Shown in pieces: positions 39,001 through 42,000 of a stretch of DNA of 64,000 bases. Location: the NCBI GenBank assembly GCA_963674705.1, contig OY771506.1, forward strand, positions 3,680,001 to 3,744,000, in the 5' to 3' direction. Each line of letters starts with the position of its first letter. Positions within the stretch are counted from its first letter, which is position 1. Position numbers: made by a program. Source of the DNA: Phycisphaeraceae bacterium. GTDB taxonomy: Bacteria; Planctomycetota; Phycisphaerae; Phycisphaerales; Phycisphaeraceae.

Positions 39001-42000
39001 CAGGCCCTGGTCGAGACCGGCCGCTACCCGATCCCCGCATACAAACCCGCCTACCAGGCGTTCTTCACATTCGTGTTGCCCGTCGCTTTCATGACCACCG
39101 TCCCCGCTCAGTTTTTAACCGGCCGCGGCACCGCCCCCTGGCTCATCGCCGCGGCTGTCGTGACGGCAGCGCTGTTATTAGCATCGATCTGGTTCTGGCG
39201 ATTCGCACTGCGGTATTACACGAGCGCGTCGAGTTGAACAGGGATGTTAGTTAGCCGCGAATGAACGCGAATAAACGCAAATGAAGATGTATATTCGCGT
39301 GGATTTGCGTTTATTGGCGGCAAACTTCCACAATGTAGTTGTCCGACAGGATTATGATAGCAATTCATCCAGACTCACAGATTGCTAATTCAAGTGCATC
39401 GTTGACGTTCGGCATACTCTTTCAGATGATTTGTTTTAATGGTGGCTATCTTGTCATATGTCTTATTGGCCGGTTCTGTCATCTGGCTTGTCGTGCTCTG
39501 GGTGTGGGTTTTAAAAGAGCATCCCGGGCCGCGCTATCCGTACTGTCCTGCGTGCAACTTCCCGACGCGACAGGTCCGTGGGACGCACTGCCCGCAATGT
39601 GGCGTAGACCTGCGTGAGGCCGGCATCAAAACACCCCGTGTCAAGGACACCGACGTCGATCAGCGTTTTATTTTCGGGTGGACCACGCCATTGGTCCTGC
39701 TCGCGGTGATCCTGCCTTTTAAACTTGATCCTATCGGCCCGAAGGTGCAGGATGTAGGCCTAAACCTGCAACTCGATAGCCTATCCGAGCAGGCGGGATT
39801 CACCATTACAATTTATGGCAAGGGATCCCCGACTGTTGAAAAAGTGACCATGGTTTTCCACGGCGAAGGCCTTGGCATTTTTGAAACAGGTGTAGACATC
39901 CCCAACATGATGCTGACCGATCCGCCCAACCGCGTATCGTCCACCGATGCGCAGCGGCCGATGAATCACCAGGCGTTGGCTCAATATTTTGAGAAGATGA
40001 ACGTTGACACATCCAGCGAAGAAACACGGCAGGCTATAGATGAGTTGATCGTCATCCTGCAAACCCTTCATCGCACCGGCCATCGGCCGCAGGTCTTCTC
40101 GTCTTTCGAACCCTTTGAGAACACCACGTATTCCCAGCATACAGCCAGATGGTTCATTTTCGGGATATTTTTAATCTGGGGAATTATATGGATCGCAGGG
40201 ATCGCGAAGTACTACAAAATCCGTGTGAGACAGCGTCTTGCAGATAATCAGAACGTCAGAGAACTCAACAAAATAATTGACCTATCATCCAATGGAATGG
40301 ATGATGCCAGCCCATGATGTTCAGCCTGATCGGCATCCTGTTCTTGATTATCCCGTTTGCGTATCTATTGGCATCCGTGGTTGGTCTGTCCTATCTCTGG
40401 TACCGGGTATTAAAAGGCAAACGTGGTGGAGACTTGCCAACCTGCGCACGGTGTGGGTATGGCGTGCGCGGCCTGGCGGGCTTGAACTGTCCGGAGTGCG
40501 GTGCAGATTTGCGTGAAGTCGGTATTACCACGCCAAAGCAGCGCGGGGCGGTTTCACCGATCCTTTTTGTGTTGTTGTGGACACTGCTATTGCCTGGGCC
40601 GACCTGTCTGGTGTCCGGGGTGTTGGTGGCAATTGGGCCGAAGCAAAGCGCCATCGATAAGGAATCGCTTGAATTAAGCATTCCAACTTCAGGCGAGTAT
40701 CGGTCATTGACTATTGAGCGATATCATGGTGGACTGTCGATACTTCCTGGCTCTACAACATTGACGATGCTGTTTTGTGTGGGACAGACCAATCATGTAA
40801 ATCTCAATATCAATCCAGATGCAATGACGTATGTGGATATTACCAACTCCAATTCCAACACGTATGGTCCGACACCGTCACGGTCGACTACACCATTGGA
40901 CCGTCAGGCAATTTTGAGTGTGCTCCAACGTATTGGCGCCGATCCGTCACGGCAGGATGTGATTGATGAAGCGGACGAGTTGCTTGGCATCGTGAAGACG
41001 ATACCTACGCAGGGTTTACTCAACGTAACCACAACAAACTTTTTTCCGAAGTACACACAAAACACTCACGACGAACCGGCTGTGTGGTTCATGCTATTGA
41101 TGCTGGGAATCTGCATCGGATTCTGGATATTGGGCTTTGTCTTCTTCTTCCGTATCCGCCGCAAGTCCGTTCCCCAAGTAAAACCATGCAAGGCTGAAAC
41201 CGCCCGGTTCGCTCCACCAAGTGACTCCGGTCCACACACCCCCCCAGCTTCCTGACCTCCTCCCTCTAGCCGCTTGCGGCTTAGCGTTGCCAGATATGGG
41301 ATTTCCACCCCATGGCCTGGCCAGCCACCAGCCTCCAGTCACCAGCCTCCAGTCACCAGCCACTTTCCCACACCCAAACACTTCCCGAATAAATTTTTGA
41401 AATTTCCTCAAGTACTACCTTGACAGAACCCGAACATTACCTAACATGGCCCATACCGGACATCAACCGAACATTGACCCGAACAAGGAGCAGGACTATG
41501 GTAACAACCGCTACAATGACCCCGAAAGGTTCCACGGCCGCCGCGAAAGGCAACGGGGCCGCAAAGCGAGGATTGACCATGGCCAAATCACAGACAAACA
41601 CCGATAAAACCGACGCCGGCCGCAAGCAGGCACTCGACCGGGCCGTCGCCCAGATTGAGAAGAACTTCGGCAAGGGCTCCATCATGCGGCTGGACGACGA
41701 TCCGGCCAACCTGCCCCCGGGCATCTCCACCGGTTCGATCAGCCTGGATCTGGCGCTGGGCGGCCGGGGCGTCCCCGCAGGGCGTGTCATTGAGGTATTC
41801 GGGCCCGAATCTTCGGGTAAAACGACGCTGAACCTGCACATCATTGCCAGCGTGCAGAAGGCTGGCGGCGTGGCGGCGTTCATAGACGCTGAGCACGCGC
41901 TGGACCCGTCCTGGGCTAAGCGTCTGGGCGTGAATATCGACGACCTGCTGGTCAGTCAGCCGGACACGGGCGAACAGGCCCTGGAAATCTGCGAGCTGCT

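Follow-up and report, generated by a model that had tools for sequence, protein, structure and literature searches.

A head-to-tail repeat as the likely LexA box of Phycisphaerae, present at SOS genes and at the promoters of a phage-type packaging operon

The window, a stretch of 64,000 nucleotides from a Phycisphaeraceae genome (G000), contains recA and its upstream region; positions 41419–42667 are given in window numbering and all other positions in contig numbering. The gene occupies 41498–42667 on the forward strand, with an ATG at 41498 and a second in-frame ATG at 41579, and its product matches TIGR02012 with 547 bits (cut-off 325); orthologues were found in 53 of 60 family genomes. A sigma-70-type promoter (TTGACA-16-TAACAT, 10 of 12 consensus matches) is predicted at 41420–41447 on the same strand, and a promoter pattern like this one occurs at 2 sites, against 0.3 in shuffles. 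The sequence and a motif scan place two boxes, each a direct repeat with an 11-bp period, one on each side of this promoter. Box 1, CTTGACA-gaac-CCGAACA (CTTGACA-N4-CCGAACA; 41419–41436, forward), contains the −35 hexamer as its first half, and box 2, CCGGACA-tcaa-CCGAACA (CCGGACA-N4-CCGAACA; 41456–41473, forward), lies 3′ of the −10 hexamer. An extra forward half-site, CCTAACA (41440–41446), covers the −10 hexamer; it stands 10 bp after the preceding half-site, out of register, and scores 0.6 as a full box. Between box 2 and the gene, the forward-strand sequence from 41474 to 41490 comprises TTGAC, a further half-site CCGAACA (41479–41485) and the ribosome-binding site AGGAG (41486–41490). 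A second box lies at a similar place upstream of recA in most relatives, and by eye the TTGAC directly after it recurs in many of them. In the window alone, a degenerate form of the pattern matches twice where 0.62 matches are expected, and 15 of 100 shuffles contain at least two; this signal is weak, so the evidence for the boxes is comparative.

To define the motif independently of the G000 sites, seed-free discovery with random starts was run on the recA upstream regions of 27 relatives, leaving out of the 30 family recA loci G000, its genus mate and one incomplete locus. An unconstrained expectation–maximization (EM) run gave the same motif shape with too many weak sites, and a search for two sites per sequence was used instead. 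The resulting motif, CcTgaCAnaanCCgAACa, carries 17.2 bits, against 8.4–8.9 in five shuffled sets, and the consensus of the box is the 18-bp direct repeat CCW(A/G)ACA-N4-CCDAACA. Pairs of half-sites peak at the 11-bp period in all four promoter sets, and inverted arrangements show no spacing peak in the same four sets. Scanned across G000, the seed-free matrix ranks recA box 1 first (25.8), the spacer of a packaging operon at 1769741 second (21.5), the Y-family polymerase promoter at 2735585 third (21.3) and recA box 2 fourth (19.5). The preliminary description had named the same four sites as the top four of the genome, a result thus reproduced without G000 seeds, and its seventh place for a site at a PA0069-family radical-SAM gene recurs with a matrix built from recA and polymerase sites. 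A second matrix, for which 49 sites lacking TTG in their first half were used (the −35-free matrix), places the packaging spacer, the polymerase, recA box 2 and the radical-SAM gene at ranks 1–4 and the promoter of a phage portal gene at rank 15, with recA box 1 falling to rank 44 (14.6). In three shuffled genomes this matrix finds 2–4 sites each at 19 or above and 0–1 at 21 or above, so a lone site scoring about 19 is not significant. Individual sites are modest, and the case rests on where they lie.

Held-out promoters of three further genes carry the repeat, scored here as percentiles of G000 upstream regions. Among Y-family polymerase promoters, 25 of 30 exceed the 99th percentile (G000 and its genus mate counted), and in two of the misses the polymerase gene sits directly behind the radical-SAM gene. 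The radical-SAM promoters exceed the 99th percentile in 26 and the 95th in 29 of 30 cases, with nearly all boxes on the same strand, 25–65 nt ahead of the aligned start. The promoter of the lexA operon, some 600 nt ahead of lexA itself, has over 29 loci the consensus CTTGacGTTcGG....ttTT.gG.TAAC.T..aCCgAACA, an inverted pair of boxes spanning the −35 and −10 elements. These half-sites are conserved, as had been noted, and individual lexA sites often score low, again as noted; those of G000 itself reach 4.5 and 6.2. At the recA, lexA, packaging-spacer and radical-SAM promoters, the motif overlaps or directly follows predicted sigma-70 elements. None of uvr, ruv, ssb and recN, whose promoters were not sought one by one, was prominent among the annotated top hits of G000. 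We also considered comM, which has a site of 15.8 in G000, and rejected it as a conserved member of the regulon because none of ten relatives' upstream regions reaches 12 (best, 11.9; 1 of 11 loci lacked a start). That the repeat is promoter sequence, made up of −35/−10 elements with AT-rich flanks, or is bound by some unrelated regulator is scarcely credible: half of recA box 1 is TTGACA, the TATGTT or TAATGT of other boxes could act as a −10 hexamer and scores near 19 arise genome-wide by chance, but four candidate sites still take ranks 1–4 when −35-like halves are removed from the matrix, the box is found in both orientations relative to transcription, the genes form a classic SOS set and the motif tracks the type of LexA.

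Two repressors of G000 might read the repeat. Its LexA is canonical (TIGR00498, 170 bits, cut-off 111; PF01726 and PF00717 domains), gives the only PF01726 match in the genome and has the Ala-Gly cleavage site, Ser and Lys in its sequence; lexA was found in 54 of 60 family genomes, and the recognition helix SKVT[VI]FEH is constant in 30 of 30 family LexAs. The second, a CI-like protein of the HTH_3/S24 type encoded at 1768801–1769670 beside the packaging operon, also contains an Ala-Gly site and the Ser/Lys residues, and its orthologues were found in 38 of 60 family genomes. We consider it very probable that the 18-bp repeat is the LexA operator (LexA box) of this planctomycete class, and that LexA rather than CI is likely to be the binder, because boxes persist where CI is not detected, the lexA promoter carries conserved sites, the box tracks the LexA helix type and the CI spacer has a palindrome of its own. 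Genomes without a detected CI keep the box upstream of the radical-SAM gene in all 11 cases and upstream of the polymerase gene in 6 of 9; they keep it at recA, too, in 6 of 6, but these were training sites. The second motif of the CI spacer, the palindrome GTTCAA-N6-TTGAAC, carries 21.1 bits against 8.2–8.5 and has its second- and third-ranking G000 sites both in the CI locus; it occurs in 34 of the 50 loci that have CI and in 1 of the 9 that do not.

A takeover of the DNA-damage genes by the CI-like phage repressor, acting at the direct repeat, would have a precedent in the co-opted repressor FddR of Francisella, as far as the cited part of that work goes (PMC13148647). Like the CI-like protein here, FddR is described there as an S24 repressor of phage type with a palindromic operator beside divergent genes; the present genome differs in having, in addition to its phage-type repressor, a canonical LexA with a regulon of its own. 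The box adjoins the CI gene and co-occurs with it, and in one genome, G017 (99% complete, 130 contigs), strong boxes remain at the recA, polymerase and operon promoters with no lexA detected and with CI as the only S24 protein. (A match to the first gene of the lexA operon, tried as a marker for the lexA locus of G017, was groEL and was discarded.) Two other genomes, G033 and G048, keep boxes with neither LexA nor CI found, so such absences may be assembly gaps. Set against the boxes that persist without CI, including those of the one-contig genome G006, against a separate spacer palindrome that tracks CI, and against a repeat that stands at the lexA promoter and follows the LexA helix, takeover by CI is very unlikely. 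The preliminary description had read the motif as the likely LexA box and left a doubt over the phage-type repressor; the reading is supported by the 27 relatives without G000 seeds, and the doubt is largely settled in favour of LexA.

The repeat extends well beyond the family. We searched 90 genomes of the class, took the recA regions of 40 picked to span its families and the lexA regions of 37 of these plus three further loci, and counted a site outside the family when it beat 200 shuffles at p < 0.05. By this measure 23 of 39 recA regions, 23 of 36 lexA regions and 28 of 39 genomes at either gene carry a site (the genomes compared are related, and so are not independent samples). The motif had been assigned to the order Phycisphaerales; its presence there stands, and its confinement there does not, for it occurs at recA in 3 of 3 genomes of family f2, and 23 of 34 genomes from other orders have it at recA, lexA or both. 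De novo discovery on the other orders alone returns the same repeat (14.3 bits against 10.8–11.1). Outside the class, 7 of 39 lexA promoters have a significant site, all with a Phycisphaerae-like recognition helix, and no box was found at the lexA promoters of 12 genomes with helix SPNGVMCH or of 6 with helix SS(T/A)NxVKKY, these being from family f33 of the same phylum, in which lexA shows, by eye, the palindrome GGTGAAC-N4-GTTCACC. Within the class, two of two f12 LexAs combine an altered helix with no site. Across the phylum, the predicted box follows the type of LexA recognition helix, with four exceptions: both f13 genomes and G130 have the usual helix and no significant site at recA or lexA, G077 has a site scoring 20.2 without a lexA match, and G017 is the case described above. 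Given the motif, SOS regulons become predictable across a large class of mostly uncultured bacteria.

Verrucomicrobial and Gram-positive LexA boxes are palindromes of the GAAC-N4-GTTC type; the repeat shares with them a GAAC/AAC core half-site and differs in that its half-sites stand head to tail. The same direct-repeat box has reportedly been seen in Acidobacterium. The closest likeness is to the alphaproteobacterial box GTTC-N7-GTTC, which in the cited part of PMC8565304 is likewise a direct repeat with a GTT core and an 11-bp period, here read on the other strand. The LexA fold and the targets recA, lexA and Y-family polymerase are also common to both, and by eye the lexA promoter of Sinorhizobium, too, has two oppositely oriented boxes. 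The half-site here is longer (CCWAACA) with a variable fourth base, and the helix is SKVTVFEH, compared with SKSG[IV]HRL. In a LexA tree of 29 rows (LG+G4), the 13 sampled sequences from the lineage with the repeat group together (100/98); their neighbours are other planctomycete LexAs, and the four alphaproteobacterial ones fall elsewhere. Forcing the two groups together costs 9.4 log units, with an AU p of 0.068 at which a joint clade is not rejected; convergence is the reading favoured here. A LexA lineage that reads direct repeats, and probably does so independently, would offer a way to ask how a symmetric dimer reads a head-to-tail site. According to the part of PMC3108266 cited here, planctomycete LexA does not read the Escherichia coli box. 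Our literature search, like the preliminary one, found no planctomycete LexA motif; most subscription journals and the Verrucomicrobia LexA work lay largely outside its coverage, so absence from print is not established.

The second-ranking site of G000 (first with the −35-free matrix), whose high rank had been reported before, lies in the spacer between CI and a divergent packaging operon. This cassette consists of CI and, facing away from it, genes for a 138-amino-acid HTH protein resembling sigma-70 region 4, an ABC ATPase, an acetyltransferase-like protein (a reading of the sequence, without a Pfam match), a ParB-like protein, a putative small terminase (assigned by position only) and the large terminase. 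It recurs with variable flanks in the 15 loci compared, and we found nothing on point in the literature, mostly outside subscription journals, for such an ABC–GNAT–ParB–terminase cassette. The spacer box exceeds the 99th percentile in 19 of 30 family loci and the 95th in 21; its presence in all nine relatives extracted earlier thus holds as presence in many and fails as universality. In a wider terminase-bearing set that overlaps the family loci (80 loci, 21 of them without an operon start), the box is found in 31 of 59, of which 30 belong to the 50 loci that have CI and 1 to the 9 that lack it. Among 26 loci outside the family, 8 have the box before the operon. The predicted promoters of CI and the terminase operon, which face each other, lie under the box in 19 of 30 family loci. 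On the operon strand a conserved TANAAT, with TTGA at a fixed distance, stands immediately before the box, and a strict sigma-70 pattern lies upstream of it in 10 of 19 loci (control, 0.6%); on the CI strand a promoter pattern overlaps or precedes it in 12 of 19 (control, 1.9%).

These placements suggest that the box probably puts the CI and packaging promoters under SOS control. The predicted link to the operon holds in about two-thirds of the family. The earlier statement that the phage module belongs to the SOS regulon is therefore retained for that part of the family, and withdrawn for the family as a whole, with the qualification that the box overlaps the CI promoter too. Because it is missing in about one-third of family loci and is tied to CI, the spacer box may serve the CI promoter more than the operon. 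An explanation along this line accepts the motif as a LexA box and holds that the spacer copy controls only the CI promoter or is a relic, so that the operon would answer to CI alone and the SOS link would be the ordinary RecA–CI switch of a prophage. The promoter patterns on the CI strand, the loss of the box in most loci that have lost CI and the third of loci without a box would all fit. It does not account for the fixed spacing of TANAAT and TTGA on the operon strand, for the retention of the box without CI in G006 and at locus L382, or for its recurrence at the portal promoter, far from CI, where it exceeds the 95th percentile in 10 of 25 loci (the 99th in 5); we therefore regard it as unlikely.

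Our favoured explanation, which we hold to be likely, is that a class-wide LexA operator also occupies the CI and packaging promoters, such that DNA damage would probably derepress the operon. RecA filaments would trigger the self-cleavage of both LexA and the CI-like protein, each of which has the Ala-Gly site and the Ser/Lys pair. Loss of LexA would free the box just behind the operon −10 hexamer, and loss of CI would free the separate palindrome GTTCAA-N6-TTGAAC at the −35 end, the two repressors together acting as a double lock on the promoter. As the CI promoter lies under the box too, repair would be followed by renewed CI synthesis and closure of the operon. The 138-amino-acid protein would be a candidate activator of a head-gene cluster 19 kb away, and the likely product would be a particle resembling a gene-transfer agent (GTA).

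That head cluster, at 1737582–1750264 in G000, was located through a weak box and encodes an SPP1-type portal, a scaffold and an SU10-type capsid; neither PF05065 nor PF04860 matches a capsid or portal protein of this genome, the head genes belonging to other families. Its promoter carries a conserved TGTGCGCACA-type element, accompanied in some genomes by a LexA box or the CI palindrome. Among the 25 portal promoters, a GCGCACA element is present in 18 (background, 3.9%), and the CI palindrome recurs strongly in two further genomes and weakly in one. Of 60 family genomes, 42 have the terminase and 41 the portal; the capsid, at 54–73% identity, was found in 55 of the 91 class genomes. Each sits at essentially one locus per genome; where both are on one contig, portal and cassette lie about 15–60 kb apart. 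All seven module genes, compared with the nearest relative, have dN/dS values of 0.014–0.28 and no stops. Terminase, portal, scaffold and capsid are intact in G000 and are retained as single loci under purifying selection. The DNA between the clusters holds host genes, including mur ligases, mraY and RNase R; none of its 14 called genes matches an integrase, and no integrase or replication module was seen at the locus, counting also 3 genes beyond the large terminase and 6 beyond the head cluster. An IS630-type element interrupts the head cluster in G000. The phage relatives of the terminase are remote, at 20–29% identity in the best 25 of 78 phage records; against viral contigs, a single-protein query returned none and an alignment query eight, at 27–34%.

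That the packaging module makes DNA-filled particles is plausible, at slightly under an even chance, and the label GTA is here an inference from genes. An alternative that keeps the SOS wiring and takes the module for a DNA-modifying, defence or lysis device, or for a maker of empty shells, is a substantial possibility, if the less probable one. In its favour, the operon has genes for an ABC ATPase, an acetyltransferase-like and a ParB-like protein, and it remains, with its box, in the one-contig genome G045, where portal and capsid were not found (two further genomes, G034 and G058, had no portal match and G053 no capsid match). Among the 15 head-cluster proteins, no tail tube, tape-measure protein or lysin was recognized, and one gave a lectin-like virion-protein match. 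Against this alternative, a genome with any one of terminase, portal, scaffold and capsid has, in most cases, all four together and intact.

Our search, again mostly outside subscription journals, found no planctomycete GTA, and known agents offer partial parallels. VSH-1 of Brachyspira, as presented in the part of PMC5147047 cited here, is induced by mitomycin C and other DNA damage and likewise combines prophage-like genes with a divided genome; the present module belongs to a different phylum, is known from genes, and has a predicted host LexA box and a CI palindrome on its promoters. For the Rhodobacter capsulatus agent (RcGTA) and the Caulobacter GTA, the cited portions of PMC6363796, PMC9632790 and PMC6473078 describe a repressor, RogA (HTH and S24 domains), that controls the activator GafA/GafYZ with its sigma-factor-like domain, a pairing similar to the HTH/S24 repressor and the candidate activator here. 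RogA lacks the catalytic residues that CI here keeps, and the head genes here are of the SPP1-portal/SU10-capsid type, unlike those of these agents. In the same portions, Rhodobacter LexA acts indirectly, via CckA, and favours GTA production, whereas here LexA is predicted to sit on the packaging promoter itself and repress it; a LexA site is also predicted at the Dinoroseobacter GTA cluster. For cultured, named relatives, the predicted wiring hints at ways of inducing the domesticated phage element, namely DNA damage or deletion of lexA or CI. Of two such strains, Poriferisphaera sp. WC338 has a spacer box scoring 20.2 at a locus that lacks CI, and ZRK32 has a weak one (7.6). A more ambitious picture, which we regard as doubtful, is that Phycisphaerae independently evolved a LexA that reads direct repeats and hold an ancient, class-wide GTA in the SOS regulon through a LexA-plus-CI double lock and the sigma-4-like activator. 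Damage would then release a pulse of particles with host DNA, and the first gene of the regulon, overprinted on lexA, would encode a protein that binds the sliding clamp.

The first gene of the lexA operon (1052951–1053718) does overlap lexA: in each of 29 family loci it extends into it by 66–77 codons, always in the same alternative frame. This leader protein gave no usable match in the Atlas. It ends in Q-[GS]-x-L-F, a clamp-binding-type motif (Q-x-x-L-F) that resembles the clamp motif Q-L-x-L-F given in the cited part of PMC4549789. A predicted complex with the G000 clamp scores 0.64, against 0.27 for the best control, with residues 247–253 in contact; of 78 solved pairs 51 pass the mark applied, as do 2 of 108 mismatched ones, at least 71% of contacts are shared between runs and the partner pLDDT is at least 42. 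Clamp–peptide complexes are textbook cases, so the model may have passed through likeness to them only. Within the overlap, none of 430 codon ends makes a stop in the alternative frame, compared with 74 of 877 further along. The Q-[GS]-x-L-F end requires Ser TCT and Leu TTG or TTA in the lexA frame, and these codons are present in 30 of 30 sequences, compared with frequencies of 1.5% and 6.4% elsewhere in lexA.

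Overprinted on lexA in the Phycisphaeraceae genome under study is a second gene (contig 1052951–1053718; L066:3951–4718). Across the family loci (L032–L061), this conserved gene covers the first 66–77 codons of lexA; its start is conserved as M-x-x-P-L-x-x-L-G-P-G-G, and its C-terminal Q-[GS]-x-L-F is fixed by rare codons. The overprinted frame is also found in most class loci (L249–L285), with a stop at codon 64–81 in 29 of 36. Modelling favours binding of the product to the replication clamp, a result that textbook likeness may explain. The PA0069-family radical-SAM protein (gene at contig 5457608–5458762), a candidate SOS protein, ends in Q-P-A-L-F-E, which is clamp-motif-like as well. 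For the second polymerase, of DinB type (contig 3394398–3395561), no copy of the box, the 18-bp direct repeat that is the likely LexA operator, was found among the top-ranked genome matches.

Other planctomycete lineages carry different LexA types. In family f33, tentatively guessed to be anammox bacteria, inspection by eye of six lexA promoters (L329–L334) revealed GGTGAAC-N4-GTTCACC, perfect in three and imperfect in three, a candidate Gram-positive-type LexA box. The LexA recognition helix SPNGVMCH occurs in family f21 (L317, L319–L328) and in L318, and the direct repeat is absent from the lexA promoters of these loci. A third planctomycete LexA motif is expected for the SPNGVMCH proteins.

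The phage module also varies among genomes. In one relative (G045, a single contig), the phage-type repressor CI, the box and the terminase operon are all retained, and searches of that contig for portal and capsid returned no match for either. A related CI-ABC-ParB-terminase cassette, with approximately 40% identity, is present in L415 and L416 (records titled Anaerolineales) and lacks the box in both. The head-cluster promoter (contig ~1750450; portal loci L179–L208) carries a TGTGCGCACA-type element, frequently in two copies, which is a candidate site for the 138-aa sigma-70-region-4-like activator. Within the head cluster, IS630-type transposase genes (contig 1743494–1744446) adjoin a possibly split lectin-domain gene.

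The best genome-wide match to the CI palindrome (score 28.8; contig 4904982) lies outside the module, near an AraC/GyrI-family gene. A second capsid gene (Phage_capsid_4/Mu gpT; contig 2120701–2123165; L165:4701–7165), beside a sigma-like gene, is unrelated to the head-cluster capsid; a box scoring 15.4 lies ~240 nt upstream of its gene run.
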